This document shows, in pieces, positions 3 through 29,295 of a stretch of DNA of 32,000 nt. Positions within the stretch are counted from its first letter, which is position 1; each line of letters starts with the position of its first letter. The notes beneath the pieces were generated by a model, which ran no database searches, was not told the DNA's origin, and was given only the letters and a program-made list of their open reading frames with translations. Made by a program: the position numbers and the translations under genes. Source of the DNA: an uncultured archaeon (GTDB taxonomy: Archaea > Iainarchaeota > Iainarchaeia > Iainarchaeales > JAAZKV01); the NCBI GenBank assembly GCA_964551375.1, contig CAZKBG010000001.1:150001-182000 (forward strand), given 5' to 3'.

Positions 3-1865
3 ATTGAATACGCTTACAAAGACATTGATTCAATAGTGGTTGATTATAATGGCTCAACACAAGTATTCATTCCAAATTCAATAAGCTATGACGACTCTCT
101 AATTCCAATGAAAAGCATTTCACAAAAATACATTGATGATGCAAAAACCGCTGTTGATGAAGCAAAGAAAGCGCTTGAACAAAGCACTCTTCCTGAAACA
201 ATTCTGGGCGATTTTTATCAAAGTTATGCCTCAACAAAACGCGGAGTTGAAATGGCTCAGAGATTCCACGACCAAAATTATCTTTATTCAGCAGCAAATT
301 ATGCGTTTAATGCAAGAGTATTAGCAGGAACTATAAAAGAAATAGCTGATAATCCTTCCCTGTTGTTAAGCGATTCTGTTTTGCTTCAATCAAAAATATC
401 CGTTCTTAGAAAAGAAATAGACTCTATAAAGCAAAAAGCAGCATATATTCCGCTTGACTCATTTGAATGGGTAATAGGCGCGCAGCAGAGAATTGCTTAT
501 GCTGATCATGCGCTTTTAAAAATTGAAAACACTGAAGTAGTAACAATTGACGCGCCTAACGCTTCAACTGACCAGAAGCAGAAAGCCGAACAGGCAATAA
601 TGTACGGGCAGGTTTATGATTATGTTTCAGCAGAAGCATGGACAAGCGTTGCGCAGGACTTTTTAAAATTAGCCCAAAAAAGCAAGCAGAAAAAGATTCC
701 AGTTTATACAAAAGATTTTGTGACAATGGTTTCTAATGAAATAATAAAAGCAGACACTCTTATTGCTGATTCAAATATCTCGCAGGCTTCACTTGCAGAA
801 GCAAAGAGAAGATTGAGCTCGGCAAAGTATTCATTTGACAATAATTTTATTTTTGCCGCGCTTTATGACTCCTACTTTGCGCAGTCATTTGTAGAATCCG
901 AGCTTGACAGACAAAACATGGATGTTGATGTATTATTCAATTCAGTAGAAACTGATATTAACAGAGGGACATCAAGCGACTCAATTTGGGCAAATATGTT
1001 CTTTGACCACGCAAAGTTTTATTATGAAAATGCGGTTTTTAATAAAAAACTTGACCGAAAGGACGAGGTAGCTCAAAGCCTTGAAACAAGCTATGACTTG
1101 ATTTATTTAAGCAAGAAATTAAACAAAGCAAAAACTGCTGTCGAGGAATATGTTGCATTTACCCAAATGACTCCTTTTGTTGACACCGAGCCAGTTGTTG
1201 AAATTAAATATACAAAAAAGCCTGCAGATAATTTTGTTTATCTTGGAACAGTAATGCTGGTGTTAGCGCTACTACTTGTAGTAATAATAATTGTAATAGG
1301 AGTGCTTGTGAAATCAAAAAGGCCAAGCTTTTCTTACATTGGGGATTCAAGGCGCGAGAAATTAAAAGTTGTATTAAACAATCTTGAATCCGCTCTCACT
1401 CAGAAAAAGATTTCAGATGCTGAATATTTCTTTATGAAAAAGCAGTACGAAAAAGAGCTTCAGCACAAAAATTTAGTAGGCGAGCAGAGAAAACGCTTGA
1501 ATTTAAGCATTGATGATTTGAGAGCAAAGCAGAGAGCGCTTGAAAGAGGATTAATTGACTTAAGAAGGCACCACAAAGACGGATTAATACTTCCTGAAGA
1601 CTTTGAAAGAAATTACAAGCAGGCGCAGGATGAAATTCACGAGATTAGGGATGAAATTAAGATTACCCAGCGCGAAAAAATTGCAGCAGGAAGGGAAAAA
1701 TCTCCCATAACTGGATTTTTCAAGAAACTTTCAAAAAAAGAGCCGAAATTAAAAGGCACTGAAGAAATTGCTCATGAAGAGGCGGAAGAAGAGACAAAGG
1801 AAAGGGCAAAGAGAAAAAAAATGATTAGAAGATTTGCTTACAGAAACGGCAAGCAGAAAAAATAA
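3..1865 (+). CDS. Membrane-anchored protein, 5' end probably cut by the window edge. It has a large helical N-terminal (likely extracytoplasmic) domain, one TM helix and a charged coiled-coil tail with SHOCT-like motifs
   Basis: The frame is open from nt 3, with no in-frame stop upstream of the GTG at 36 that the ORF track uses. TM helix FVYLGTVMLVLALLLVVIIIVIGVLV lies at ~nt 1232-1312. The tail is K/E/R-rich and carries KKISDAEYFFMKKQYEKEL and GLILPEDFERNYKQAQDEI, which resemble SHOCT motifs. Confidence 0.6.
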   Translation: MEYAYKDIDSIVVDYNGSTQVFIPNSISYDDSLIPMKSISQKYIDDAKTAVDEAKKALEQSTLPETILGDFYQSYASTKRGVEMAQRFHDQNYLYSAANYAFNARVLAGTIKEIADNPSLLLSDSVLLQSKISVLRKEIDSIKQKAAYIPLDSFEWVIGAQQRIAYADHALLKIENTEVVTIDAPNASTDQKQKAEQAIMYGQVYDYVSAEAWTSVAQDFLKLAQKSKQKKIPVYTKDFVTMVSNEIIKADTLIADSNISQASLAEAKRRLSSAKYSFDNNFIFAALYDSYFAQSFVESELDRQNMDVDVLFNSVETDINRGTSSDSIWANMFFDHAKFYYENAVFNKKLDRKDEVAQSLETSYDLIYLSKKLNKAKTAVEEYVAFTQMTPFVDTEPVVEIKYTKKPADNFVYLGTVMLVLALLLVVIIIVIGVLVKSKRPSFSYIGDSRREKLKVVLNNLESALTQKKISDAEYFFMKKQYEKELQHKNLVGEQRKRLNLSIDDLRAKQRALERGLIDLRRHHKDGLILPEDFERNYKQAQDEIHEIRDEIKITQREKIAAGREKSPITGFFKKLSKKEPKLKGTEEIAHEEAEEETKERAKRKKMIRRFAYRNGKQKK

Positions 1866-1910: not shown

Positions 1911-4900
1911 TTAAGATGCTTCTTCTTCATTATCGCTCAAATCTTCCACTGTTACATTTGATTTAGCGTGTTTTATTTCTTCATCAGCATCGCTTTTTAA
2001 TTTAAGTCCAATAACAGAACTGTCATCTCTTCCTCTTGCCACTCCAATTATTTGATGCGCTTTCTTTGTAATAACATCATTGTGGGTGATTGCAATGAAC
2101 TGGCTCTTTTCAGCGATTTTTTCAATTAAGTTGCTCATCTTTAATGAATTTTCTTTATCAAGCGCCGCATCAGCTTCATCAAATGCGTAAAACGGAGCAG
2201 GGTGGTATAATTGTATTGCGAACATGAAAGCAAGCGCTGTGAGGGTTTTTTCTCCCCCGCTCATTGAATCAATGTTTTGAAGTTTTCCTGCCTTGTGCTT
2301 TGCGTCAATCATTAATCCTGAATCAAGAGGCTTTTCTCCGTCAGCAAGGCGAAGGTCGCCTTCTCCGTTAAAGAATTTAAAGAAAATCTCTTTGAAGTTT
2401 TTGTTAATTTCATTAAAGCAATCCATGAAAACGCTTGTTCTCTTTACTTCAATTTTATCAATCATATCAAGAACTGCCATTCTTTCTTCGCCAAGTTTAG
2501 TTGCTTTTTGCTGTATATCATCAACTTCTTTCTTTAATTCATTAAAATTATCCACTGCCTTGAAGTTAACTGCTCCAATATCGTTGAGTCTTTTTTCAAT
2601 AAAAGCAAGTCTTTCTTTACATTCATCAAGGCTCTTTGAAGCATAAGGCTCAATTCCCTCAAACTCTTTCTTTTCTTCAGACAAATCCGCCTGTCTTACT
2701 CCAAGTTTGCTTTTTTCAATATTAAATTCCCCAGTTCTTACTTCAATCTTTCTTACCTTTCCAGATTCAGTTATTATTTCCTTCTCAAATTTATCAATTT
2801 TCTTATCAGAATAATCTTTTTCTTCAGCCAAAATTGCATTCTTTTTCTTTGCCTCGTGAAGTTGCTTTTCTTTAGCCATCACTTCTTCTTTAATTTCCAT
2901 CAAAAGCTTTTCTTTTTCCATTATTTCCTTTCTTAGCTGCTGGGTCTCGGCAGTAAGCGCGTTATTTTCAATTTCAGCATCCTCGTGCCTTATTGAAAGC
3001 GAGTCAAATCTTACTTTTAATTCATTAAATGCAGTTTCAACAACCCTTCGCTTATGTATAAGTTCTTCTGTTGTTTTGTTTGCTTTTGAATATTCTTCAA
3101 AAATATCCTGCTTTCTTGTGGAAGTAACAGAATCTTTCTGCTTTTCTTTCTCTTCAAGCAGTTGTTTTATTTTCTCATTGAGTTTATTTCTCTTTGACAT
3201 CTGAACGTCAAACTCTTTATTATCAACATCCTTCTTTGTTAGTTCAATTTTCTTCTTTAATTCCTCAAGCTTAGAATGAAGGCTCTTCTCATGAGCAGTT
3301 TCAGCGCTCAGTTTAGCAATAAGCATGATTCTTTCCTTTTCTTCATCAATCCTTTTCTTAATGTCGCTGATTTTAGCCGCGTGCTCTGACTCCATTGATG
3401 AATATTCTCTAATTAGCTTCTCTTTTTGTGCAAGAAGCAGCGCTTTTTTATCTTCTTTTAATGAAGAATCGCAAGTAGGGCACTGCGAAGCAGCTTTTTT
3501 TAGCTCATTAATAGCTTTTTCTTCCTGAAGTTTCTTTGATAAAAACAAATTCTTTGCCTCAAAAATTTCGGACAAATGCTTTTCAAAATCAGCCAGGTTT
3601 TTGTGAGGTTCTTTCTTCAAATGCTCCTCAATATGCTTCTTTTTTTTCTCAATTTCATTAAATTCTCCCTCTAATGCCTTCTCTTCTCCCTGCATTTCAA
3701 TTAATTTCCTTTCAGCAAATGATTTTTGCTTTTCCCAGTTTCTTGCAAGCACCTCAAGATCAAATACTTCCTTTCTGGCTTCTTCAATTTGCTTGTTTAA
3801 TTCTTCAAGTTTAGTCTCTTCTTTTGCTAGTTCAGCATTTTTTGATTTAACAATTCCTTCGAGCTGGGATTTCTTTTTGGAAGCTTCCTCAATCTGCCTT
3901 TCAAATTCTTTTAATTCCCCTTCCATTCTCTTTTGCTTCTCTTCAAGCTCCTTTCTTTCCTTCTCCCCATGCTTTACCGCGCTGGTATTAGTCTCAATTT
4001 TTTCAGTATTTTTTGCAATCTGCTCATTCTTCATGTCAATTTTGCCCTGCTCAAGAAGAAGCTTGGCTTTCTTTTCCTCATACTCTCTTCCAATTGTCGA
4101 GTAAGTTACTTCGCTTGCCTTAATCATCTGCCTTGATAAATCATCAGACTTCTTTTTTGATTCTTCAAGCTCTTTTCTAATTCCAAAAACCCTTTCTTCA
4201 ATAATTCGCTTCTGCTTGTCAAGCTCGCTGATTTCATTATCTGCATCAAGAATTTTTTTCTCAATTGTGTAAAGCTCTTTTGCAATAACAGTTGATTTAG
4301 TCCGCTTTCTTTCATCATCAAGCTCTTTTACTTCCTTAGCCGCCTTCATTTCCTGCTCCAGTTCTGAAAGGAAAGCATTTCGTTCGTTCATAATAATAGT
4401 TGCTTCCTTAATTTTTGAATCAACCTTATCAAGCTCTTTAATTGCCTCGTCCTTTTTTTGATCAAACTCGCTAAGTCCCGCAATATTATCAATAACCTCT
4501 CTTCGCTCAATAGGAGACATTTCAATAATTTTAGTAATATCCCCTTGCGTTACAATATTGTGCCCGTTAACATCAATTCCAAGCTCTGTTAACAGCGAGC
4601 TGATTTCGTTTAGGGTAGTTCTCTTTCCATCAAGGCGGTAAACACTCTTTCCCTGCTTGTCAATCATTCTGCTGATTTCATATTGTTTCTCATCATCTTT
4701 AAGCGTTAAATCAACTTTTCCGTAATTTTCTTTAGCGTCATTATTAACTAAGTCCGTCAGCTTGCCCGCTCTTAATGCTTTAAGCGAAGTGATTCCAAGA
4801 ACAAATAATAAAGCGTCTAAAACATTGCTCTTTCCGGAGCCGTTGCTTCCAACAATAGCAGAGAAGCCCTTGCTAATGGGAACTTCAGCCTTCTTAAACG

Positions 4901-4940
4901 ACTTAAAGTTTTTTAGAGTAAGTTTTATCAGCCTAGTCAT
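1911..4940 (-). CDS. smc: SMC-family chromosome-organisation ATPase, atypical: SMC-type heads, continuous coiled coil, central CPTC instead of a hinge
   Basis: N-terminal LKNFKSFKK...GFSAIVGSNGSGKSNVLDALLFVLG (Walker A at nt 4827-4850) and NIVTQGDITKIIEMSPIERREVIDNIAGLSEFD. C-terminal signature plus Walker B MSGGEKTLTALAFMFAIQLYHPAPFYAFDEADAALD. About 650 aa of K/E/L-rich coiled coil lies between the heads. CPTC at aa 487-490 (nt 3471-3482) out of 1009 aa. Confidence 0.85.
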   Translation of the reverse strand: MTRLIKLTLKNFKSFKKAEVPISKGFSAIVGSNGSGKSNVLDALLFVLGITSLKALRAGKLTDLVNNDAKENYGKVDLTLKDDEKQYEISRMIDKQGKSVYRLDGKRTTLNEISSLLTELGIDVNGHNIVTQGDITKIIEMSPIERREVIDNIAGLSEFDQKKDEAIKELDKVDSKIKEATIIMNERNAFLSELEQEMKAAKEVKELDDERKRTKSTVIAKELYTIEKKILDADNEISELDKQKRIIEERVFGIRKELEESKKKSDDLSRQMIKASEVTYSTIGREYEEKKAKLLLEQGKIDMKNEQIAKNTEKIETNTSAVKHGEKERKELEEKQKRMEGELKEFERQIEEASKKKSQLEGIVKSKNAELAKEETKLEELNKQIEEARKEVFDLEVLARNWEKQKSFAERKLIEMQGEEKALEGEFNEIEKKKKHIEEHLKKEPHKNLADFEKHLSEIFEAKNLFLSKKLQEEKAINELKKAASQCPTCDSSLKEDKKALLLAQKEKLIREYSSMESEHAAKISDIKKRIDEEKERIMLIAKLSAETAHEKSLHSKLEELKKKIELTKKDVDNKEFDVQMSKRNKLNEKIKQLLEEKEKQKDSVTSTRKQDIFEEYSKANKTTEELIHKRRVVETAFNELKVRFDSLSIRHEDAEIENNALTAETQQLRKEIMEKEKLLMEIKEEVMAKEKQLHEAKKKNAILAEEKDYSDKKIDKFEKEIITESGKVRKIEVRTGEFNIEKSKLGVRQADLSEEKKEFEGIEPYASKSLDECKERLAFIEKRLNDIGAVNFKAVDNFNELKKEVDDIQQKATKLGEERMAVLDMIDKIEVKRTSVFMDCFNEINKNFKEIFFKFFNGEGDLRLADGEKPLDSGLMIDAKHKAGKLQNIDSMSGGEKTLTALAFMFAIQLYHPAPFYAFDEADAALDKENSLKMSNLIEKIAEKSQFIAITHNDVITKKAHQIIGVARGRDDSSVIGLKLKSDADEEIKHAKSNVTVEDLSDNEEEAS

Positions 4941-6274: not shown

Positions 6275-7129
6275 ATGACATTCAATAATTCAGTTCTGAT
6301 GATAGTAAAGCAAACTCCTGGAATTGAATATAACGATTTATTGTCAAAAATTTCTCAAAGATACAAAAATCCCGCTTCGGCAAAATCATCCTTGGCTCGG
6401 GCGCTAAAAGACATGGCCTCATTTGGGCTGATAAAAAGAGAAGGAACAAGGCTTTTTGTGACGGATAAAGGGCTTGCTTCAATGAGCATAGAAATGAAAG
6501 ATAAATTAGTTTTAAGATTAAATGAAGAAATGAAGCGCCCTCTTGGAAGCTTGAATGACATTGTCCGTTTGTTGATTGTTTTATCCCAGCGAGGGAGCCA
6601 GGATAAGGATTTGTTAAATAATGCAAAAGAAAATGCTTCCTTCTCAATTGAAGATATAGAAGAACTAAGAAGAAAAATCCGCGCTGAAAGAAAACACTTA
6701 AAGAAAATGAGCCTTCTTCTTGAACAGCAGGCAACAAAACTTCGCGAACTTGACTTTAATGATACTGCAAAAATTCCATTTGATGAGCAGGTGGCTTCAA
6801 AGATAGGATTATTTTGCAAAGGACAGAAAATAATAGTTGAAACAAAGGATAATGATATTCTATCAAAAATTCCTGAACATTGGAAAAAGCAGGGAATTAT
6901 TTCAGTTGAGGGGGAAAATATTCCATTACTTACACAACTCCTTGCTTCAATGCTCTCAATTAAAGCAACGCTCTACTTGCCTGGAATTAAAGTTATTCTA
7001 ATGGCGGGAAATGCAACACTTTTTGGCGCGCACAAAGCTTTGAAGAGTTTTATTGATATGAAAGTGGCTGATGAAGTGAAGAGCCAGCTTAAAGAAAGCC
7101 AAACACAAGTTCAGCCTAAATTAAATTAG
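6275..7129 (+). CDS. Hypothetical protein with an N-terminal winged-helix-like DNA-binding domain
   Basis: 284-aa ORF. The N-terminal ~70 aa (IEYNDLLSKISQRYKNPASAKSSLARALKDMASFGLIKREGTRLFVTDKG) has the helix-turn-helix-plus-wing pattern of MarR/PadR-like wHTH proteins. The rest is unrecognised. Confidence 0.6.
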   Translation: MTFNNSVLMIVKQTPGIEYNDLLSKISQRYKNPASAKSSLARALKDMASFGLIKREGTRLFVTDKGLASMSIEMKDKLVLRLNEEMKRPLGSLNDIVRLLIVLSQRGSQDKDLLNNAKENASFSIEDIEELRRKIRAERKHLKKMSLLLEQQATKLRELDFNDTAKIPFDEQVASKIGLFCKGQKIIVETKDNDILSKIPEHWKKQGIISVEGENIPLLTQLLASMLSIKATLYLPGIKVILMAGNATLFGAHKALKSFIDMKVADEVKSQLKESQTQVQPKLN

Positions 7130-7155: not shown

Positions 7156-10100
7156 TCAATCAAGATTGATTTGCTTTCCGTTAATTGCATCAATCATTAC
7201 TACTCTTTCTTCACCAGTTCGTTTCTTTAAAACGCCTTCCCAAACTGGAAGGAATAAGTGAGTAACTTCTTTGACGCTAACATTTCCCCATAGTTTGTTT
7301 AGTAAAGCAGGCAAATCGCGTTCGTTTAAAGCAGGAGCAATTACAGCAGCTGATTCAATTTCAGTAATAGCTTTCTTTCCAATGCTTGAAAGCATTTCAT
7401 GTAATGGTGTTGGAGGAAGCTCAATTTCAATTCTTCCTGGCGCGTATACTGGATTTCCCTTGCTATCCGCTTGGATTTGAAGAAGCCCTTTCTTTGTTAG
7501 TGAATCAAGCACTCTTTTTGCATTTCCTTCTTCCATCTTCATTAAAACCGCAGCGTCTTTTGGAGTTCTCTTCTTTTCAGCCACAAGCTTAAACATAGTT
7601 GATTCGGATTCGTTTAAATCCATAAAAATTGGAAGACCTTTGCTTTCTACTAAAGCTCCTCTATCATCATGGATGAATTCTCCAGTTAGTGAATTAATGT
7701 AAGCTTCTCCAACTTGGAAAGCATCTTTGTGATTGAAGTACTTGTATTTTACTTTGTATAATTGAGCGTGCTTTAATACAACCCTGTCAAGTATTTCATC
7801 AGGGAATAAGAATTTTTTAGCAGCAAACCCTGCCAAAGATTTTCTTGCTCTCTGTTCATCAATCACAGGCCTTAATGCAGTAAGCTCAACTTTTTCATCA
7901 AACTCATGCAATTGTTCTCCAAACTTTTCAACATCCTTTGGAAGCTTCTTTGGCTTTAACATCTGCGCTCCGTAACCTTCTTCAGTATTTTCATTCTCAA
8001 GCGCTTCCTCTTCCTCAGCTTTAAGTGCTTCTTCTTCCTCTTTCTCCGCTTCCATTTCTTCAAGAACGCCTTTAGCGTAAACGGAATCATCTTTTACATT
8101 AAGCCCCTTCTTTTCAAGCTCTTTTAATATTTTATCAATTGAAACATTCTTTTTGTAAGTGTTATTTAAAGTGTCAAGAGTTTCCTTAATGCTGTCAATT
8201 CTAATGCTTGGATCTTTTTTCAATTGGTTTAATGCAATATTAACCGCGAGCACTTCAACTTGTTCAGTTTCAAGCTCCTGCTTTTCGTCAGTAGTCTCTG
8301 CATCTCTTCCTTCGTGCTGGCTCATTCTTGGGCGGATGCTCATCACAAATGCTCTGCTTGTAGTTTCGCTTCTGTCTCCGGTTAACGCAATTCCAACAGG
8401 CATTGTTTTAATGAAATTAGATTTCTTATAAGCAAAAGGAACAATAGTTGGAGTTCTTTTGTAAATACTCTTAATATCATCATCAAAAACTAATTTATGC
8501 GCCATGATAATATCTAATTGGCTTAAAACTTTGGAATCAATAGCGCTTGGCTGCTGAGTTGCAAATACTAAAGAACATCCAGGCCTTCTTCCCTGCTTAA
8601 CATACTCAACTAAAGCGCTGCTTGCAGGAGTTTTTTGATTTCCCCCAGGGATTAAAGTGTGCGCTTCATCAATGAAAAGCCAAGTTGGAGGAATGTTTAA
8701 TTCAACAATATCCTCCATCGCAGTATTATCATCAAATTTACCCGCAGCTTCTCTTCTTGTTCCTAATTTTCTTGCTGAGAGTAATCTTCTTGCAATAATT
8801 CCAACAACTAACGCGCTAACATTATCTTCCAAAAAACTTGTGTCAAGAATTGTCATTTGTCCCGCTCTTGAAAGAAGTCCAAGTGAAGTTCCTTTCTCAT
8901 CAAAAATTCCCCAATGCTTTGCAGCGTCAAAACGGCTTACTAAAGCTCTAATTGAATCAGCTTTGTAACCTTTTTCCCTATCATTTAATTCAGCATCAAA
9001 TTCAAAGCACTTTGCTAAATCATCAAGCGAGAAAGTATTTTGCTTTCCTCTAACTTCCTTTCCTTCCTCAGTAGAATAACCGCTTTTTACTTTTGCAATT
9101 CCTTTCTCCATCAACAGTCCAGTTGGAGAAAATCTGTCAATTCCAAAAGTCAAGCACCAATCTTCAGCAGTTAGTAAAGAAGGCTGGATTGAGAACACCG
9201 CATCATAAGTGCTTTTAGGAACTGAATCCTTCATTCCAACAGGGATGAAAACTTTAATGTTGTTTAGCCCTTTTGGCATTATTCCCCATTTAGCAAGTGC
9301 TTCAAGTTCTTTTTCTTCTTTATTTGGGTGCTTCATTGACCAAAATACTCCAATAGGGTCAACAACTACAATTCCAACATTTTTATTTTTTAATGCAAGC
9401 TCTTCTGCAACAACACCTAAAACATAGGATTTACCAGAGCCTCTTGCCCCGCAAACAAATACAACGTGAGGATTTAATCCGTCAAGATAAACATCAGTTC
9501 CTTCTTTGTCTTTTTCATTAACTCTTCCGACAAATAGTCCCGCTTCTTCACCGTATTTGTTTAATACGCTCTTTTTTCTTCCAATGTATGCATGTCCTTT
9601 TTCGCTCATTAAGAATTCAAGCTCGGGTTTTATTACGCCGTCTTTACCGTCTTCAGTTTCGTCCTCTTCAACTAAATTAGCTTTAGGCATTTTTGATTTA
9701 GGCGCGTTTTCGTCAGCATCCTCTTCTGAATCCACTTCGTCTTCAATTCCTTCTTCTTTAATTCCGTCTTCTCTCATTAAATCATCAGCCATTTCGTCAT
9801 GATCTTCATCCTGCTTTCTAGACGTGATAGAATCGTCATTAATCTTAACGCCTTTGTTAATTTTAACCTCTCCTTGAGCCGCCATCATAGCTTTATTCCT
9901 TATAACGCTCTTAATTATGGCTCTTTCAACAGGATGAGCTTTTGTAACCTCTTCTTCCTCATCCTCTTCATGAGTGACTTTTAAATCTAACTTGCCGCCG
10001 TAACCATTGCTCTTCTTTTTACCGTTTTCAGCTATATTTTCCTTTCCATTAGCGCCAGAATTAGATTTGTTTAAGGAATTATTAAGTTTTTCATTTATAA

Positions 10101-10686
10101 TATCATCAAAGTTATTGTTTGAGTTCTTCTTTTTCTTTCCGCCAGCGTCCACCGCGTCAAAAGCATCATCCTTAGTTTCAAATTCCTCTTCCTCTTTAGC
10201 ATCTTTAACTTCGCCAAAAATAACCGGCTCAGCAGAGTCCTCTTCATCTTCTTCTAAAACTTCATCTTCGTCATCATCTTCTGAATCATCGCTTTTCTTA
10301 TCAGATTTTTTATCATTTATCACAGTTTTGTTGCCTTTAATTTCAGCATCATCATCAGAGTCTTCTTCCCCTTCATCATCTTCGGAATTATCTTCTTCAT
10401 CGTCCTCGGCTTTATCTGCTTTAGCTTCTTTTTCTTCTTCAGTGTCAGTATTTTCTTCTTCACTTTTTTTTGCTTTCAATTCTCTTGCTTCTTTTGAATT
10501 TCTTTTTTGCTTTAAGATATTGGCTTTTTCAGCCATTCTTTTCTTAGCTTCTTTTTCCTCGTCATCTTCTCCAAAAACATCATCAAACAAATCATGGTCT
10601 TCAGTTTCGATAGTTGCCTCTACCCTGTCTGAACTATTCATTAAAGCTTCGCCCACGTTGCTCTTTGATTCAATTTCTTCTTCCAC
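7156..10686 (-). CDS. HerA/COG0433 (DUF87) FtsK-HerA superfamily ATPase with a polyacidic N-terminal region and a large C-terminal extension containing a wHTH-like segment
   Basis: Walker A VFVCGARGSGKSYVLG (nt 9427-9450), Walker B WLFIDEAHTLIP (~nt 8658-8681) and GRRPGCSLVFATQQPSAIDSKVLSQLDIIMAHKL, typical of COG0433. The first ~360 aa are D/E/K low complexity. The C-terminal ~400 aa include MFKLVAEKKRTPKDAAVLMKMEEGNAKRVLDSLTKKGLLQIQ. GTG start with GGAGA ~14 nt upstream. Confidence 0.8.
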   Translation of the reverse strand: MEEEIESKSNVGEALMNSSDRVEATIETEDHDLFDDVFGEDDEEKEAKKRMAEKANILKQKRNSKEARELKAKKSEEENTDTEEEKEAKADKAEDDEEDNSEDDEGEEDSDDDAEIKGNKTVINDKKSDKKSDDSEDDDEDEVLEEDEEDSAEPVIFGEVKDAKEEEEFETKDDAFDAVDAGGKKKKNSNNNFDDIINEKLNNSLNKSNSGANGKENIAENGKKKSNGYGGKLDLKVTHEEDEEEEVTKAHPVERAIIKSVIRNKAMMAAQGEVKINKGVKINDDSITSRKQDEDHDEMADDLMREDGIKEEGIEDEVDSEEDADENAPKSKMPKANLVEEDETEDGKDGVIKPELEFLMSEKGHAYIGRKKSVLNKYGEEAGLFVGRVNEKDKEGTDVYLDGLNPHVVFVCGARGSGKSYVLGVVAEELALKNKNVGIVVVDPIGVFWSMKHPNKEEKELEALAKWGIMPKGLNNIKVFIPVGMKDSVPKSTYDAVFSIQPSLLTAEDWCLTFGIDRFSPTGLLMEKGIAKVKSGYSTEEGKEVRGKQNTFSLDDLAKCFEFDAELNDREKGYKADSIRALVSRFDAAKHWGIFDEKGTSLGLLSRAGQMTILDTSFLEDNVSALVVGIIARRLLSARKLGTRREAAGKFDDNTAMEDIVELNIPPTWLFIDEAHTLIPGGNQKTPASSALVEYVKQGRRPGCSLVFATQQPSAIDSKVLSQLDIIMAHKLVFDDDIKSIYKRTPTIVPFAYKKSNFIKTMPVGIALTGDRSETTSRAFVMSIRPRMSQHEGRDAETTDEKQELETEQVEVLAVNIALNQLKKDPSIRIDSIKETLDTLNNTYKKNVSIDKILKELEKKGLNVKDDSVYAKGVLEEMEAEKEEEEALKAEEEEALENENTEEGYGAQMLKPKKLPKDVEKFGEQLHEFDEKVELTALRPVIDEQRARKSLAGFAAKKFLFPDEILDRVVLKHAQLYKVKYKYFNHKDAFQVGEAYINSLTGEFIHDDRGALVESKGLPIFMDLNESESTMFKLVAEKKRTPKDAAVLMKMEEGNAKRVLDSLTKKGLLQIQADSKGNPVYAPGRIEIELPPTPLHEMLSSIGKKAITEIESAAVIAPALNERDLPALLNKLWGNVSVKEVTHLFLPVWEGVLKKRTGEERVVMIDAINGKQINLD

Positions 10687-11121: not shown

Positions 11122-11247
11122 TTATTCAATTGACTTAATGCCTGGCGAAGTCAAGCATTAATTATTACCGTAATTGCATGGCAACTGCGAAGCCAGTGGA
11201 GCACATAAGTGCGACACACTCGCCCGCAAGCCGGCGTGACGGCTTAT
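11122..11247 (+). other. Long, partly GC-rich putative 5' leader of tRNA-Ser(UGA)
   Basis: TATA-like CTTTAAAAA at ~11092-11100. Hairpin TTAATGC/GCATTAA at 11135-11161. A ~57% GC stretch at 11178-11247 contains the hairpin GCCG-GCGTGA-CGGC and abuts the tRNA directly. Confidence 0.3.
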
Positions 11248-11331
11248 GCAGAGGTGGCAGAGTGGTCAAATGCGCTCGGCTTGAGACCGAGTTCCCGAAA
11301 GGGAGCGGGGGTTCAAATCCCTTCCTCTGCG
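11248..11331 (+). tRNA. tRNA-Ser (anticodon UGA), class II with a long variable arm, no intron
   Basis: Acceptor GCAGAGG/CCTCTGC plus discriminator G. Anticodon arm CTCGG-CTTGAGA-CCGAG. Variable arm TCCC-GAAA-GGGA. T arm GGGGG-TTCAAAT-CCCTT. Confidence 0.9.
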
Positions 11332-11344
11332 TTAATCAGAAACT

Positions 11345-17048: not shown

Positions 17049-17175
17049 TAATTCACCAACACATGAAATATAATTCATGCGTATATTTAAACCTTCTGTT
17101 TTAGGGCTTAATTTTGCTTCGTGAAGGTTTTAATCCTTTTGAAGCTTATCTTTTAGATAAAACTGAGCGGTTAAT

Positions 17176-19320
17176 ATGTGCGGAATTGCAGGGCTTGTGG
17201 GATATGACTCGGGCGAATCTGTGCTCCGAGCGGCGCTTAGAGTAATTGATTACCGCGGAATGGACGCAAGCGCAATTGAAACAATTGATAACATTTCAAT
17301 AGGGCATAATCTGCACTCAATTGTAGGATTTCTAAAACAGCCTTTAGTAAATGACAAGAGCATATTTTCAGCAAACTGCGAAATATATAATTGGGAAAAA
17401 ATTGCCAAATCAAAATCAATCACTGCCTTAAACGACGCTGATTTAGTGCATAAGCTTCTTGACAATTCGCTGGCAAATGTATCAAAGAATTTGATTTTGA
17501 AAGTTTCAAAGAAAAGAATTCTTGAACTCGTGGAGTTATTTGACGGGGATTTTGCGTTTTCTTATTACTTAAAAGAACACCAACTTCTTTTCTTGGCAAA
17601 GGATATCGCTGGAGTAAAACCTCTTGTCTATCACTTTGATTCCGCCGGGAAGAAATTTGCTTTTGCGTCAGAAAAGAAAGCATTGGAATTTATTGGAGTA
17701 AAAGATTCAATCCACTTAAATCCAAGAAAAATACTCTGCTTTGACATAAAAGCAAACAAAGTTTCATTTATTTCAAGAAAAATTATTTCAAAAAAGCAAA
17801 AAGATCCAATTAACGCGCTTCACAAATCAATAGTGTCTTCAGTTGAAAAGAGAGTTCCTTTGGTTAAAAGCGCAGTTCTCCTTTCAGGAGGGCTTGACTC
17901 GGCAATTATTGCAAAATTATTAACTCACTTTTCAAAAGTTGACGCATATTTTTCTGGAGTAGTTGATGAGAAAAACCACCTATTTGAACCAAAAGACTTG
18001 GCTAACGCAATAAGCGCGGCGGATGAACTTGGATTAAAATTAACCATTGCAAAAGTATCCCTTTTGGAATTTGAAAACGAGCTTCCACAAATTATTTCTC
18101 TAATTGAATCAGTTGATCCAATTCGAGTGGGTGTTGCTTCAACTTTATACTTTGCCGCAAGAGAAATAGCAAAATCAAACGCAAAAGTAGTGTTTTCTGG
18201 GCTTGGCGCTGATGAATTATTTGCAGGGTATAACAGATTCAAAAACTCAAATGATATTAACAAAGACGCTTACAGCTATTTCATAAAATTGTACGAAAAT
18301 GACCTGTACTATCAGGATATTGTGTGCATGAATCACAAGCTTGAATTAAGAGTTCCATTTTTAGATAAAGAAGTAATTTCGCAGGCGCTTATACTTGGCT
18401 CCGAGCACAAAATTGACAAAAAAACCGGTGTGAACAAAAAAGTACTTAGAAGTATTGCTCTAAATTTAGGCTTAAGCTCTGAAATTGCTCTGCGCCCAAA
18501 AAAAGCCGCTCAATACGGAAGCAATTTTGACAAAGCTCTTGAAATACTCGCAAAAAATAATGGATTTAAATCAAAAGCTGATTATTTGAATTCAATTGCA
18601 AAAGGCAAATCAGCTTCAAATACAATTTCAAAAAATATTCCAATTGCAGCGCTTCTTTCAACAGGAAAGGATTCAATTTATGCAATTCATTTAATGCAAA
18701 AACAAGGATATCCAATTAAGTGTCTTATTACAATTGATTCGCATAACAAGGACTCATTTATGTTTCACACTCCGACAGTAGAGCTTGCGCATTTGCAGGC
18801 AAAAGCAATGGGAATTCCACTTATAATAGTAAAAACAAAGGGAGTTAAGGAAAAAGAATTGATTGATTTAAAGAAAGCAATAAGCGGGGCTGTTAAGAAG
18901 TACAAAATTGAAGGGGTTTGTTCAGGCGCATTGTTTTCCAACTACCAGCGAGAAAGAATTGAAACAATATGCGAAGAGATTGGGATAAGGGCTTTTGCTC
19001 CACTTTGGCACATGAATCAGGGAACTTATTTAACAAATTTAGTAAATCAGGGATTTAGAGCAATAATTACGAAGGTTGCATGCTTTGGATTAAACGAAAA
19101 GTGGGTGGGAAGAGAAATTAACTCAACTGCAGTAGATGAATTAAACGCGCTTGAAGAAAAATACGGGATTAATGTTGCTGGGGAGGGCGGAGAATACGAA
19201 TCCTTTGTCCTTGATGCTCCGTTTTTTAAAAAGAAAATTGAAGTTTCAGGAATAAAAAAAATGCAGAATGAATTCACAGGCGAGTATGTAATAATTGGGA
19301 GTGGAATTGCTGAAAAGTAA
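17176..19320 (+). CDS. Fusion protein: class-II glutamine amidotransferase plus asparagine-synthase-type PP-loop synthetase (AsnB-like), joined to a C-terminal Dph6/MJ0570-like ATP-pyrophosphatase (diphthine-ammonia-ligase family) domain
   Basis: N-terminal MCGIAG (catalytic Cys2), NCEIYNW, DGDFAF and KDIAGVKPLVYH. First PP-loop LLSGGLDS (SGGLDS at nt 17884-17901) and SGLGADELFAGYNRF. Second PP-loop ALLSTGKDS (STGKDS at nt 18658-18675), followed by FHTP...EGVCSGALFSNYQRERIE...APLW...GEGGEYESFVLDAPFF, characteristic of the Diphthami_syn_2 family. Confidence 0.85.
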   Translation: MCGIAGLVGYDSGESVLRAALRVIDYRGMDASAIETIDNISIGHNLHSIVGFLKQPLVNDKSIFSANCEIYNWEKIAKSKSITALNDADLVHKLLDNSLANVSKNLILKVSKKRILELVELFDGDFAFSYYLKEHQLLFLAKDIAGVKPLVYHFDSAGKKFAFASEKKALEFIGVKDSIHLNPRKILCFDIKANKVSFISRKIISKKQKDPINALHKSIVSSVEKRVPLVKSAVLLSGGLDSAIIAKLLTHFSKVDAYFSGVVDEKNHLFEPKDLANAISAADELGLKLTIAKVSLLEFENELPQIISLIESVDPIRVGVASTLYFAAREIAKSNAKVVFSGLGADELFAGYNRFKNSNDINKDAYSYFIKLYENDLYYQDIVCMNHKLELRVPFLDKEVISQALILGSEHKIDKKTGVNKKVLRSIALNLGLSSEIALRPKKAAQYGSNFDKALEILAKNNGFKSKADYLNSIAKGKSASNTISKNIPIAALLSTGKDSIYAIHLMQKQGYPIKCLITIDSHNKDSFMFHTPTVELAHLQAKAMGIPLIIVKTKGVKEKELIDLKKAISGAVKKYKIEGVCSGALFSNYQRERIETICEEIGIRAFAPLWHMNQGTYLTNLVNQGFRAIITKVACFGLNEKWVGREINSTAVDELNALEEKYGINVAGEGGEYESFVLDAPFFKKKIEVSGIKKMQNEFTGEYVIIGSGIAEK

Positions 19321-19366: not shown

Positions 19367-19387
19367 TCCATGCCAAGATGGCATGGA
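19367..19387. terminator. Perfect hairpin between two convergent genes
   Basis: TCCATGCCA-aga-TGGCATGGA forms a 9-bp stem with a 3-nt loop, flanked by A/T runs. It lies between the stops at 19320 (+) and 19407 (-). Confidence 0.5.
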
Positions 19388-19406: not shown

Positions 19407-21725
19407 TTACTTCTTTGTCCACTTCTTTCCGGCAATTGGTTCAGTTTCTGGAGTATTTTGAATTTTAATCCAAAGTAGAGCAAGCATTAATGCTAATAAA
19501 ATTATTAGCAATGGCAATGCCCAGCTTACTGGAGTTGAACCATTTGTGTTTCCAAGGAACCCGAACAAACCAGCAGTTGGAACTGATGCAACAGGCGCAT
19601 TAGAATCGCTTGTTGATAGGTTTGTATCTTCTCCGCTTGGTGTTAACGCATTCAAATCAAACGGCGGTCTGATGTTATTTACATTCACATCATTAGCTGG
19701 CGCGTTTAAATCTGGAGTGTTTGTATTTGTGTCAACCGGCACAACAACTGGAACGTTATTGTCCACAGGTCTGTTTGTATCAGTTGGCGGGAAATAACTT
19801 CCTCCGCCTCCACCGCCAGTTGGTCCGCTTGGAGTAGGCGCATTAACAGTTAATATTGCTGTGTTTGACGCAGTAGTTCCTGCTCCTGTGAAATTAGCTG
19901 TTAGAGTGTATGTTCCAACAGTTCCTGCGTTGAATGTTAGGCTTAGCAGTCCGTTTGAATCAGTCGCAGTGCTCATTGTTCCAAGCCCGCTTGTGATTGT
20001 TATTGTTCCGCTTGGATTAGCTCTTCCAGTATTGGAAGTAACAAATCCGCTCACAGTAACATCGCTTCCCACTGTAACAGTGCTTGGATTTACTGACATG
20101 TTTAATGTGTACACATCAATAGCGTTTGTGTCTATCTGATTGTATCTTACTCCATTAGCCATATCAGTTATTTTTGCAACAACTGCAATTGGTCCGATTG
20201 GCCAGTTAATATCCGGAGTTGCAACAACTCTAAATATTCCGTCCGATACTTCCACTGCTGTGAACTTTTTGCTGAAATCGCCTTTTGCGAATTCAATTTC
20301 AATATTTTTAGTTCCGTTATTGTCTGTTACATTTAACTCAACAACAACATTTCTATCCAGCATTATTGGATTTGGAGTTATTGTCATGCTGTTGATAGTG
20401 TATATTCCATTTGTCCTTATTGTAAATGGAGGAGTTGATGTTATTACTCTTGAATAATTGTTTGCTTCATCAACGCACTTTGCTGCTACTACTTTTACTC
20501 CAAGAGTAGTGAATACTCCTGTTGTGAAGTGAGGAAGAGTTACTCCCTGCGGCGCAATTGGCGCTGTCCATCCTGCTGATGGATTTAATGAATTATAGTC
20601 AAAGTTGAACTGGCATGTGCTTACTCCTGATAAACTATCAGTTGGAGCGCTGATTGCTGCCATTATTTGGCCATAATTGAAGTCAATAGTTCTTGTTGAG
20701 AAATTTGTGAATCCCCCTAAAAAGAACATTGAGTCAACCATTGCAGGAGCAGTTTTGTCAATGGAAATCATTTTGCTGTTTACATTTCCATCTATTCCCT
20801 GTCCATTAGTTGAATTGTATCTGATGTACTTCTTTCCTTCAACGCCGAATAAAATTGGCGCTGTGTAATTAATGTTTGGAGCGCATGTATCGCTTTTGTC
20901 AATACAGTACTTGATAGCTGAGATTCCGCTTTCAAGATCGCTTGCTGTGATTGTTGCAATTACATCGGCATTGTACCATTTTTCGCCGCTTGTTGAGTTA
21001 GTGTCTATTATTAGTGTAGATATTGGGGGAGTTGTGTCGTATGCGTTTACTACATTGAATGTGAATGGGGAAGTTGATGGCGCGCTTGTGTTGTTCGCCT
21101 TATCTGTGCACTTAATTGCAATTACTTTTGTTCCATTAGTGTCGTAGTAATGCACATGGGCAGTAGTCAAATCAACATTTGTTGTAGGAGCATCCCAGCC
21201 AACTGTCGGATTCTCTGAATTATAATCAAAATTCAGTTCGCAAGTTAGAAGTCCTGAAGTGTTGTCGCTTGAAATTATTCTAAGTCTTGCAACCCCGTAG
21301 TTTATAGTAAAAGTTCTTGTTGATGGATTGTAAGTTGTTCCTTGAGTTGCGTCAAGCGAGAAGCCTAATGTGTCAGGAGCAACGCTGTCAACTTGAACAG
21401 TGTATCTTTTTTCAAGTTCAACGTTTCCGTCCATGCTTATTGCTTGATATCTAAATGTTCTTACTCCGTGTCCAAAATTCATATCGCCTGTCCAGTTAAG
21501 GTCAGGAGCTGGAGTTCTTTTTTTGTTCAAATCAAAAGTGTATTTGATAGAGTCAATTGCGCTGTCTGGATCAGCTGCGTTAATTGAAACTGTTACGCTT
21601 GGATTAAACCATCCAAGAGAGTTTGGTTCTGATGGCGTTGTGGTTAAAACCGAAGTCGGCAGAGCAAAAGCAACTGCTGAAATTGCCAAAATCACCCCTA
21701 TGAGTATCATAAGTCTTGCATTCAT
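19407..21725 (-). CDS. Large secreted, C-terminally membrane-anchored surface protein (S-layer/adhesin-like) built from Ig-like beta-sandwich modules
   Basis: I prefer the ATG at 21723-21725 (MNARLMILIGVILAISAVAFA, a signal-peptide-like start), preceded by GGGGGA; the ORF track start is 21767. WFN/WYN..V.V.I.A.D..S.I..IKY modules. P/T/N-rich stalk (PTPSGPTGGGGGGSYFPPTDTN...). C-terminal TM WALPLLIILLALMLALLWI followed by a basic tail. Many N-x-S/T sequons. Confidence 0.8.
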   Translation of the reverse strand: MNARLMILIGVILAISAVAFALPTSVLTTTPSEPNSLGWFNPSVTVSINAADPDSAIDSIKYTFDLNKKRTPAPDLNWTGDMNFGHGVRTFRYQAISMDGNVELEKRYTVQVDSVAPDTLGFSLDATQGTTYNPSTRTFTINYGVARLRIISSDNTSGLLTCELNFDYNSENPTVGWDAPTTNVDLTTAHVHYYDTNGTKVIAIKCTDKANNTSAPSTSPFTFNVVNAYDTTPPISTLIIDTNSTSGEKWYNADVIATITASDLESGISAIKYCIDKSDTCAPNINYTAPILFGVEGKKYIRYNSTNGQGIDGNVNSKMISIDKTAPAMVDSMFFLGGFTNFSTRTIDFNYGQIMAAISAPTDSLSGVSTCQFNFDYNSLNPSAGWTAPIAPQGVTLPHFTTGVFTTLGVKVVAAKCVDEANNYSRVITSTPPFTIRTNGIYTINSMTITPNPIMLDRNVVVELNVTDNNGTKNIEIEFAKGDFSKKFTAVEVSDGIFRVVATPDINWPIGPIAVVAKITDMANGVRYNQIDTNAIDVYTLNMSVNPSTVTVGSDVTVSGFVTSNTGRANPSGTITITSGLGTMSTATDSNGLLSLTFNAGTVGTYTLTANFTGAGTTASNTAILTVNAPTPSGPTGGGGGGSYFPPTDTNRPVDNNVPVVVPVDTNTNTPDLNAPANDVNVNNIRPPFDLNALTPSGEDTNLSTSDSNAPVASVPTAGLFGFLGNTNGSTPVSWALPLLIILLALMLALLWIKIQNTPETEPIAGKKWTKK
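20346..21611 (-). repeat. Tandem duplication of a ~211-aa (about 633-nt) two-domain module inside the surface-protein gene
   Basis: GWFNPSVTVSINAADPDSAIDSIKYTFD (W codon at 21609-21611) matches KWYNADVIATITASDLESGISAIKYCID (W codon at 20976-20978). CELNFDYNSENPTVGWDAP...KVIAIKCTDKANNTS matches CQFNFDYNSLNPSAGWTAP...KVVAAKCVDEANNYS. DNA-level similarity survives locally (gaattataatcaaaattcag vs gaattatagtcaaagttgaac). Confidence 0.7.
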
Positions 21726-21937
21726 ACATATTCCCCCTAAAATTCGCTTTTTGAGCGAAATCCCCATTTTTATTAATATAATTCTGCCCCAAAAAGCTTA
21801 AAAATGGATATAAGTTATTACGGTTAACAAGTTAATTTGAATATTTGGCACAATTTCTTGTTTTGGCGAATAAGTTAATTTTATTTGATTTAATGGCAAA
21901 TTTGACCTTTATTTTAGTGATTTGTCATTTTCTAAAG

Positions 21938-27610: not shown

Positions 27611-28312
27611 ATGCAAAAAATCACAATCTTTTTGTTACTCTTGACAATTGTATTAATAACGGGGTTTGCAAAAGCCGACTTGATAATTCCTCCAGAGCCT
27701 GGAACACATGAGGTAAGCGAATGCGTTAAGATTGTAAACGCCGACAGTATAAATTCAGGACAATATATTATTGTTAGTTTAGAGTATAAGTTTGATAGAT
27801 CTAGGAGGAGTAATAATTTTGACGGCAAAGACAGTGATAATTATGCCAAGTTTGGGCATGAACTAAGAATTGTTTCCCCTGCTGACTGTGTTGCGAATAG
27901 AATTTTTGGAGCGACGGTTGGCATGGTGCATACGAACTACTTAATAGATAAAATCGAATTTGAATCAATTGGTGGAATTTATATGACTGATTTTAACTAT
28001 TTCAAAGACAAGCAAAACATAGAATCAATTTCAAGCCTCTACTACAGAATAGGAAGAGTAAAAGACACAAATACTCTGACTGCAATTGACTTAAACTATA
28101 CAGCTGAAGTATTTGAAAATCAGGTCGCATTTACAAAAGTGGGTGAGAAATGGACTTATTCAGACGACCTTGTTTCTCAAGTTGACAAGCCGCAGCCTGA
28201 TTTGCCTCCTATTGAAGAACCAATAGAGCCAATTTCGCAGCCTGTAAAACAAATGAATGTTTTTGAGCAAATATTCTGCTTCTTCAAATCAATCTTTACA
28301 GGAAGCTGCTAG
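27611..28312 (+). CDS. Secreted hypothetical protein
   Basis: 233 aa. Signal peptide MQKITIFLLLLTIVLITGFAKA, a P/E-rich linker (PQPDLPPIEEPIEPISQP) and a hydrophobic Cys-terminated C-terminus. No family recognised. Confidence 0.6.
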   Translation: MQKITIFLLLLTIVLITGFAKADLIIPPEPGTHEVSECVKIVNADSINSGQYIIVSLEYKFDRSRRSNNFDGKDSDNYAKFGHELRIVSPADCVANRIFGATVGMVHTNYLIDKIEFESIGGIYMTDFNYFKDKQNIESISSLYYRIGRVKDTNTLTAIDLNYTAEVFENQVAFTKVGEKWTYSDDLVSQVDKPQPDLPPIEEPIEPISQPVKQMNVFEQIFCFFKSIFTGSC

Positions 28313-28746: not shown

Positions 28747-29295
28747 TTAAAGAGTTTTTTTAGTTAATTTATTAGCATACAGGAAATAGGGTATGAAGAA
28801 TCCAGCGTATAATCCTATGAAGTGTGCTGCTCCGTTTGCCATTGTATTTTGTTGTACACTTAATTGAGAAAATATTGGTAGTCCAAATAGTAAGATAGAT
28901 ATCATGACTAGCAGTATCATCATTCTTGGGTTTTTCCACAAATATGATTTTATTTGATTCTTGTTTATGTTAAGCTTTTTGGAAATAATCCAGACTGCTA
29001 TTGCGTTTATTACTATTGCTATTATTATCCAGTTTATTCCAAGTAGCCAAGAAAACCCATATAGTGTGGCAAGTGCGTCAGCTATTATTACTATTGTTGT
29101 TGAAGCTAAGTATATCATAAAGAAGAATGCAACTTTTGATTTTGAGTAGTCTAGATTGAGTTTTAGGTCTTTGTTAAGTACTTCAATTGTGAAGAAAAGT
29201 AATATGCCAAATGTGGCTGTTATTATGTCAGAAAATCCACACGAGGTTTTGAAATTGGTCATTATTATAAATCCAAGGAAGTTGGCAATTGTCAC
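28747..29295 (-). CDS. Polytopic membrane protein with an uncertain start (the frame stays open 243 nt further upstream without any ATG/GTG/TTG)
   Basis: 182-aa ORF from the GTG at 29293-29295, with about 5 TM helices. The same frame is stop-free up to 29538 and encodes membrane-like sequence (…GHLIPNIISFFVFYLLIVLITSERKDLWNQFYKIFLITFSI…). Confidence 0.55.
   Translation of the reverse strand: MTIANFLGFIIMTNFKTSCGFSDIITATFGILLFFTIEVLNKDLKLNLDYSKSKVAFFFMIYLASTTIVIIADALATLYGFSWLLGINWIIIAIVINAIAVWIISKKLNINKNQIKSYLWKNPRMMILLVMISILLFGLPIFSQLSVQQNTMANGAAHFIGLYAGFFIPYFLYANKLTKKTL

Follow-up and report, generated by a model that had tools for sequence, protein, structure and literature searches.

Introduction

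Elongation factor 2 (EF-2) carries a conserved modification, diphthamide, which preserves reading-frame fidelity. The last step of diphthamide formation is carried out by the diphthine-ammonia ligase Dph6, which adenylates the carboxylate of diphthine and then amidates it. To our knowledge, the ammonia source for this step has been settled in no organism. The closest systems to the one analyzed here were described by de Crécy-Lagard et al. (Biol Direct 2012, 7:32; PMC3541065), who reported COG0367/AsnB domains, resolved into a class-II glutamine amidotransferase (GAT-II) and an Asn_Synthase_B_C domain, located N-terminal to the Dph6 domain DUF71 in Methanohalophilus mahii, Methanosalsum zhilinae and Ca. 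Nanosalinarum. They proposed that NH3 released by glutamine hydrolysis feeds both DUF71 and the AsnB-type domain, and their reviewer L. Aravind asked at which of the two PP-loops the ammonia is consumed and which reaction the AsnB-like PP-loop catalyzes. Our literature searches returned no biochemistry of the fused form, and among their results this comparative-genomics paper alone mentions the fusion.

Here, we characterize a gene of this kind in a 32,000-nucleotide stretch of DNA (referred to as the window; contig CAZKBG010000001.1, positions 150,001 to 182,000, assembly GCA_964551375.1) from an uncultured archaeon of the Iainarchaeota. The gene (17176-19320, + strand) encodes a 714-residue protein that combines a class-II glutaminase, an AsnB-like PP-loop domain and Dph6. 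An initial annotation, made from the sequence alone, stated that no AsnB-Dph6 fusion had been described, which the 2012 report contradicts. The locus adds one member to the already published AsnB-DUF71 fusion class and the architecture is not new. That the gene is the organism's Dph6 in this known fused form, explained by a supply of glutamine-derived ammonia, is in our judgment somewhat better than an even bet as a whole. This is because its two parts differ in weight: it is highly probable that the protein serves the cell as Dph6 in the fused form already known and that its N-terminal module is no housekeeping asparagine synthetase, while the chance that glutamine-derived ammonia actually reaches Dph6 falls slightly below even.

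Results and Discussion

Dph6 identity and the diphthamide pathway

Homology and genomic context identify the C-terminal DUF71 domain (residues 488-714; 18637..19317, +) as archaeal Dph6 and indicate a complete diphthamide pathway. The domain scores 281 bits against the NCBIfam equivalog TIGR03679 (Dph6_archaeal; cut-off 197), covering profile positions 1-215 of 218, and matches Pfam Diphthami_syn_2 (PF01902) at residues 490-705 (E 1e-69, 235 bits). In alignments with proteins of solved structure, the C-terminal 225 residues match PH1257 (2D13, E 4e-62) and PF0828 (3RJZ, E 2e-56) from one end to the other. For the DUF71 paralogue families PAB0415 and TTX_0299, the scores are 72 and 48 bits, far below the cut-offs of 250. 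The PP-loop STGKDS (residues 495-500; 18658-18675, +) lies in the motif ALLSTGKDS (492-500), and EGGEYE is found at 19183-19200 (+), with GEGGEYESFVLDAPFF spanning residues 669-684. The 2012 analysis singled out residues S44, E78, Y103, Q104, E183, E186 and E188 of PF0828 (PMC3541065). Their equivalents here are S527, E561, Y590, Q591, E670, E673 and E675, which are invariant across 114 aligned fusions. These are the residues that separate the Dph6 subfamily from the B12-salvage DUF71 subfamily.

The genome (1.09 Mb, 10 contigs, 93% complete) contains a single PF01902 locus and a single PF00733 locus, both of which are the fusion gene. The initial annotation had suggested looking for further dph genes and for a separate asnB. 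Dph2 (TIGR03682, 305 bits) and Dph5 (TIGR00522, 190 bits) are encoded in the genome, as is archaeal EF-2 (aEF-2, 987 bits) with the diphthamide-site motif HEDSIHRGPAQ, and no second PF00733 locus that could represent a separate asnB was found. Given the sole PF01902 locus together with Dph2, Dph5 and the aEF-2 motif, we assign the 714-residue protein as the organism's diphthine-ammonia ligase.

Domain architecture and predicted structure

The gene consists of one stop-free frame (2142 nt, 714 amino acids, P0001), in which three Pfam families follow one another in order and which was modeled as a whole using AlphaFold2. It thus carries GAT-II, an AsnB-type PP-loop domain and DUF71, in this order and on one polypeptide, as do the members of the AsnB-DUF71 class. 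The motifs quoted in the initial annotation are all located where it had placed them, and its calls of a glutamine amidotransferase, an AsnB PP-loop domain and Diphthami_syn_2 agree with Pfam and, for the last, with the above-cut-off TIGR03679 match.

The class-II (Ntn) glutamine amidotransferase domain extends from residue 1 to approximately residue 200 (17176..17775, +) based on GATase_7 and GATase_6 matches (GATase_7 at residues 54-170, E 1e-14) and contains the motifs MCGIAG (1-6), NCEIYNW (67-73) and DGDFAF (123-128). Cys2 (17179-17181, +) is the predicted nucleophile after removal of the initiator methionine, Asn67 and Glu69 are encoded at 17374-17382 (+) and Asp87 at 17434-17436 (+). 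The AsnB-like PP-loop ATP-pyrophosphatase domain follows at residues ~205-450 (17788..18525, +), as defined by an Asn_synthase match (residues 219-362 and a second stretch, E 2e-37) and by alignment with E. coli AsnB (1CT9), which covers residues 21-448 of the protein (E 2e-20). Its PP-loop SGGLDS (17884-17901, +) is part of LLSGGLDS (235-242), the SGLGADE motif (18196-18216, +) is found with SGLGADELFAGY at residues 341-352, and two lysines, Lys421 and Lys442, are encoded at 18436-18438 and 18499-18501 (+), respectively.

Between this domain and Dph6 lies a connector (residues 451-487; 18526..18636, +) that is predicted to form two helices (451-461 and 467-477), followed by a short loop of lower confidence. 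Conservation of this stretch is evident from the consensus of the aligned fusions (NFDKAIEKLAKKNGFK..YL). AlphaFold2, run on a 114-sequence alignment, returned five similar models with a mean pLDDT of 92.7 and a pTM of 0.89. Confidence is lower only at residues 441-450 and 471-490 (pLDDT of 79 and 69 within the latter stretch), and the two connector helices have pLDDT values of 96 and 94. A pTM of this size for a three-domain chain suggests a confident prediction of how Dph6 is positioned on the AsnB-like body, and together with the conserved connector it suggests a fixed domain arrangement. No solved structure covers the entire fusion; only separate Dph6 and AsnB entries match.

The AsnB-like module and asparagine synthesis

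To characterize the N-terminal module, 115 full-length fusions were aligned with E. coli AsnB (from NC_000913), whose residue numbers are used below. Arg49 of AsnB binds the carboxylate of glutamine, and Glu348 is required for formation of beta-aspartyl-AMP. The glutaminase residues are almost always retained (Cys1 in 114 of the 115 fusions, Asn74 in 112, Glu76 in 113 and Asp98 in 114), and since the catalytic residues are so strongly constrained, the Ntn glutaminase is probably active. Similarly, no variation was seen in the PP-loop SGGxDS, Gly347, Glu352 or Lys429, and 113 of 115 fusions retain Lys449. Two other positions are consistently changed. Arg49 is replaced by leucine in 112/115 fusions (Leu46 in our protein, 17311-17313, +) and followed by an invariant histidine (His47 here), and Glu348 is likewise replaced by leucine in 112/115 (Leu343, 18202-18204, +). 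There are no gaps around these positions (GHNLHSIV vs. AHERLSIV and SGLGADE vs. SGEGSDE). At the position of Lys376 the fusions carry glycine or tyrosine and at that of Arg387 arginine, phenylalanine or tyrosine, with tyrosine at both in the 714-residue protein. The replacement of the aspartate-site charges alongside retention of the ATP-binding residues suggests that the middle domain binds ATP and that its acyl substrate, if it has one, is probably not free aspartate.

The module also scores below the cut-offs of both curated asparagine synthase models, with 206.8 bits for TIGR01536 (cut-off 267.1) and 199.7 for PRK09431 (cut-off 499). Together with the consistent loss of Glu348, these sub-threshold scores disfavor ordinary asparagine synthesis. 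Cys1, Asn74, SGGxDS, Lys429 and Lys449 are conserved but common to the wider AsnB-like superfamily and therefore do not by themselves prove asparagine synthesis. The term AsnB-type synthetase used in the initial annotation thus calls for qualification, as Glu348 and Arg49 are replaced and the asparagine synthase cut-offs are missed.

The translation apparatus of the organism bears on the same question. No asparaginyl-tRNA synthetase (AsnRS) above cut-off was found in the genome, an absence that is probable rather than certain at 93% completeness, nor in its family as defined by the Genome Taxonomy Database (GTDB). The sole class-IIb synthetase match is an aspartyl-tRNA synthetase (AspRS) of bacterial type (PRK00476, 843 bits), and GatB and GatE are encoded, GatA and GatC not having been searched for. 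The lack of AsnRS and the presence of GatB point to tRNA-dependent asparagine formation, and with the bacterial-type AspRS and GatB in place, free asparagine would not be needed for translation. Across the phylum, 80 of 215 genomes have an AsnRS above cut-off (none in the window's own family), and fused forms occur both with and without AsnRS, so that presence of the fusion does not correlate with its absence.

The AspRS gene itself is located outside the window (G000:C1:322881-324740; L010:508-2367, -) and is the only one in the genome. It encodes 619 residues of bacterial type, scores 228 bits, below cut-off, against the archaeal non-discriminating model TIGR00458 and was likely acquired horizontally. 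As GatB is present and AsnRS absent, this AspRS presumably charges tRNA-Asn too. Further, no glutamine synthetase (PF00120) was detected in the genome, which is 93% complete, although GatB/GatE and the amidotransferase described here all need an amide donor. The cell probably relies on glutamine import.

Distribution of fused and unfused forms

Among the best 120 matches listed from a large protein collection, 114 are 660-760 residues long, 43-73% identical to our protein and carry the same three families, which answers the question of how widespread the architecture is that the initial annotation had raised. These homologues come from NCBI, JGI, ENA and Logan assemblies and are named diphthine--ammonia ligase by NCBI and asparagine synthase by JGI. 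The closest homologues that carry an organism name are from Ca. Iainarchaeum and Diapherotrites MAGs, which makes a DPANN archaeon of this phylum the very probable source of the window. Within species-representative genomes, full-length matches were obtained from Iainarchaeota, Woesearchaeota/Nanoarchaeota, metagenome-assembled genomes (MAGs) labelled Methanosarcinales and one Halobacteriota MAG, with partial-coverage matches (starting at residues 63-127) in the cultured Methanohalophilus sp. RSK and Methanococcoides vulcani. The fusion is common in small-genome archaea, and near-full-length homologues sharing it in several archaeal phyla imply that it is under selection.

The phylum (215 genomes) was searched using PF01902 and the first 487 residues of our protein, and the loci retrieved were then inspected. 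The AsnB-like module, fused or not, was matched in 191 of the 215. Apart from full fusions of ~690-745 residues, the architecture of the window gene, several Iainarchaeota lineages encode the middle domain and Dph6 without a glutaminase (~500-530 residues; loci L014-L019, e.g. L014:2748-4229, +, and L016:2551-4062, -). For these, no glutaminase partner lies within ±3 kb, and elsewhere in the same genomes GATase_7 occurs only in open reading frames (ORFs) of GlmS or PurF size. In other genomes, a stand-alone Dph6 (~230-270 residues) is found together with a separate glutaminase-synthetase protein of ~480 residues, which is 30-34% identical to the module here, or with a protein of ~280 residues comprising the synthetase domain only. 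In each of eight genomes examined for linkage, the stand-alone AsnB-like gene and Dph6 were located on different contigs. The AsnB-like gene is absent from one family of very small genomes (f34) that does have Dph6.

In a maximum-likelihood tree of 61 middle-domain rows with E. coli AsnB as the root, every Dph6-fused sequence belongs to one clade (SH-aLRT 99) that includes sequences from Methanosarcinales, Halobacteriota and Nanoarchaeota/Woesearchaeota as well as the glutaminase-less form. In the tree sample, this clade is found solely fused to Dph6. The glutaminase-less proteins form their own clade (98), sister to the full fusions of Iainarchaeota, which indicates a derived loss of the glutaminase. 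The domains of the ~480-residue and ~280-residue proteins group in a separate clade (99), methanogen stand-alone AsnB-like proteins branch outside both, and a long, fully supported branch parts all archaeal forms from canonical bacterial AsnB. From this topology, the fusion seems to have arisen once, long ago, and then to have spread or been inherited across phyla. Most stand-alone archaeal proteins also lack Arg49 (exceptions are an ANME-1 copy and one of the ~480-residue sequences) but have glutamine, not leucine, at the Glu348 position, so that leucine at this position appears to be a mark of the fused clade. Two bacterial relatives retain both canonical residues. No named family for the stand-alone relatives was found in NCBIfam, which gives generic asparagine-synthase matches only; the Iainarchaeota forms tested are below cut-off and a relative from Methanoperedens is above it (311.9 vs. 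267.1).

Proposed mechanism and competing explanations

In the mechanism that we propose, the Ntn glutaminase (Cys2, Asn67, Glu69 and Asp87) would free ammonia from an amide donor, most likely glutamine. The ammonia would then move through an AsnB-type inter-domain tunnel into the middle domain and be consumed at the ATP site of that domain, at the docked Dph6 site, or at both. The Dph6 domain would adenylate the diphthine carboxylate on His615 of EF-2 and subsequently amidate it, with the AsnB-like module being a specialized clade that occurs only in fusion with Dph6. The initial annotation had likewise suggested an intramolecular source of glutamine-derived ammonia, a reasonable idea that was published in 2012 (PMC3541065), with the transfer itself being a proposal. 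Channeling of ammonia to Dph6 is favored by the single origin and long retention of the fusion, the fixed predicted assembly, the leucine and tyrosine residues that replace charged aspartate-site residues specifically in the fused clade and the lack of a requirement for free asparagine.

Several observations weigh against this mechanism. Essentially all members keep the PP-loop, Lys429 and Lys449 of the middle domain, an argument for ATP use by this domain and against a role as a conduit only. The ~500-residue form persists without a glutaminase or a dedicated glutaminase gene, so that the fusion of middle domain and Dph6 can be maintained without glutamine-derived ammonia. In addition, many relatives use a bare Dph6 of ~230 residues, and the family of very small genomes does so without any AsnB-like gene, making the module dispensable for Dph6 there. 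Because Arg49 is missing, the amide donor is not certain, and our literature searches found no biochemical data on any fused member. A more specific version of the mechanism, in which the AsnB-like module gave up aspartate adenylation and became a dedicated glutaminase with an extended hydrophobic ammonia conduit, ATP binding being kept as a gate, would fit the leucine at the Glu348 position and the replaced aspartate-site lysine and arginine and is possible but rather doubtful. As a variant reading, the middle domain might perform a second amidation on the translation apparatus.

The retained ATP site is also the starting point for the most serious alternative, a bifunctional protein in which GAT-II and the AsnB-like module amidate a non-aspartate carboxylate with ATP while Dph6 separately uses free ammonia, the fusion serving co-expression or shared localization. 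This would account for the invariant ATP-site residues and for the retention of the synthetase domain in glutaminase-less forms. It would also fit the sister-clade proteins, which stand alone as ~480-residue or ~280-residue forms on other contigs than Dph6 in eight genomes, and the presence of the module in 191/215 genomes of the phylum, which suggests a conserved function of its own. However, the fused synthetase clade is monophyletic, was sampled only in fusion with Dph6 and has leucine where stand-alone proteins have glutamine, indicating a function specialized to the fusion. Both the high pTM and the conservation of the connector favor a fixed assembly over beads on a string, and the gene neighborhood suggests no second substrate. 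On balance, we consider a bifunctional protein of this type unlikely, though worth serious attention.

A true asparagine synthetase B fused to Dph6, producing free asparagine from aspartate as E. coli AsnB does, is less likely still and in our view improbable. The best-scoring named families for residues 1-450 are indeed asparagine synthases, JGI annotates many homologues accordingly, and Cys1, the PP-loop, Lys429 and Lys449 are conserved. Yet both curated cut-offs are missed, Glu348 and Arg49 are each replaced by leucine (Glu348 in 112/115), Lys376 and Arg387 are replaced in the 714-residue protein, and the fusion is present independently of AsnRS across the phylum. In a genome and GTDB family without AsnRS but with GatB, free asparagine would also be unneeded in translation. 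Lastly, the initial annotation had raised the concern that a chimeric contig, a missed stop or a frameshift could have joined neighboring genes. Such artefacts are a general risk in metagenome assemblies, which is all that speaks for one here. There is no stop in the 2142 nt of the frame, the connector sequence is conserved, and the same junction is shared by at least 114 homologues from NCBI, JGI, ENA and Logan as well as by cultured Methanohalophilus and Methanococcoides. Conservation of the junction across independent assemblies effectively rules out misassembly or a missed stop, and we regard the chance of an artefact as vanishingly small.

Gene neighborhood and other features of the window

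The neighbors of the fusion gene encode a hemerythrin, a cupin, a DEAD-box helicase, an Ig-like surface protein, a MacB-type ABC transporter and an SMC-like ATPase, none of which is tied to diphthamide or nitrogen metabolism. An AT-rich, TATA-like element read from the sequence (TTTTAGATAAAA; 17151..17162, +) is located in the 97-nt divergent intergenic region and ends 13 nt before the ATG. It may be an archaeal promoter that gives rise to a leaderless or short-leader transcript. Downstream, a 19-nt near-perfect palindrome (CCATGCCAAGATGGCATGG; 19368..19386) lies between the convergent stops of the fusion gene and the gene at 19407-21767 (-) and could represent a shared terminator hairpin. This convergent gene encodes a 786-residue protein with Big_3_5, DUF7743 and CarboxypepD_reg-like Ig-fold domains, in which the initial annotation had noted an internal tandem duplication and which it had listed as a candidate S-layer protein or adhesin.

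Elsewhere in the window, two ATPases are unusually large for a 1.09-Mb genome, a 1176-residue protein of HerA/DUF87 type (7156-10686, -) and a 1009-residue protein of SMC_N/AAA_15/AAA_21 type (1911-4940, -). ORFs of 182-609 residues at 36-1865 (+), 6275-7129 (+), 27611-28312 (+) and 28747-29295 (-) have no Pfam match at E <= 0.001. The only tRNA of the window is a tRNA-Ser (anticodon TGA) at 11247-11332 (+).

Implications and comparison with known systems

For annotation purposes, the name asparagine synthase should be avoided for the N-terminal module, and finding the gene in a DPANN genome should not be taken to show that asparagine is synthesized there. If the conduit version of the mechanism were true, diphthamide formation would be glutamine-dependent in these archaea, and the protein would be the first glutamine-dependent diphthamide synthetase, with a PP-loop synthetase domain turned into a channel. 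The fused enzymes represent a natural experiment on the ammonia source, which, if ammonia from glutamine reaches Dph6, would show how this step is fed in cells without glutamine synthesis or ammonia assimilation. Taken together, the pattern of residues, the form without glutaminase and the one-time origin of the fusion leave a few testable options for the question posed in 2012.

Compared with the fusions known from M. mahii, M. zhilinae and Ca. Nanosalinarum J07AB56 (PMC3541065), the protein described here has the same domain order and the same proposed role in providing glutamine-derived NH3. Its middle domain shares a clade with those of the Methanohalophilus and Methanococcoides fusions (SH-aLRT 99). 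It differs from the Methanosarcinales fusions in stemming from a 1.09-Mb DPANN (Iainarchaeota-like) genome and is ~40-50% identical to them. Further, its glutaminase residues are intact, whereas Cys1, Asn74 and Asp98 are apparently lost in the Methanococcoides copies (L065 from M. vulcani and L085 from Methanococcoides sp.), where they align to Gly, Asp and Asn. In these copies, whose ORF boundaries are unverified, the tblastn match starts at about query residue 63, and the glutaminase may be degenerate.

With E. coli AsnB (1CT9) and human ASNS (6GQ3), the module shares the combination of class-II glutaminase and PP-loop synthetase, including Cys1, Asn74, Glu76, Asp98, SGGxDS, Lys429 and Lys449. 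It departs from AsnB by leucine at the positions of Arg49 and Glu348, by tyrosine at those of Lys376 and Arg387 and by the absence of ~100 C-terminal AsnB residues. Stand-alone archaeal Dph6 proteins (PH1257, 2D13; PF0828, 3RJZ; MJ0570) share the PP-loop and the EGGExE motif with the C-terminal domain, but their PP-loop reads SGGKDS as opposed to STGKDS, and at ~230 residues they have no amidotransferase and presumably use free ammonia. Yeast Dph6 (YLR143W), in which DUF71 is followed by two RidA/YjgF-like domains, likewise joins an amidating DUF71 domain to a module proposed to supply ammonia (PMC3541065), although its partner module has another fold, is C-terminal instead of N-terminal and would yield ammonia by a different chemistry.

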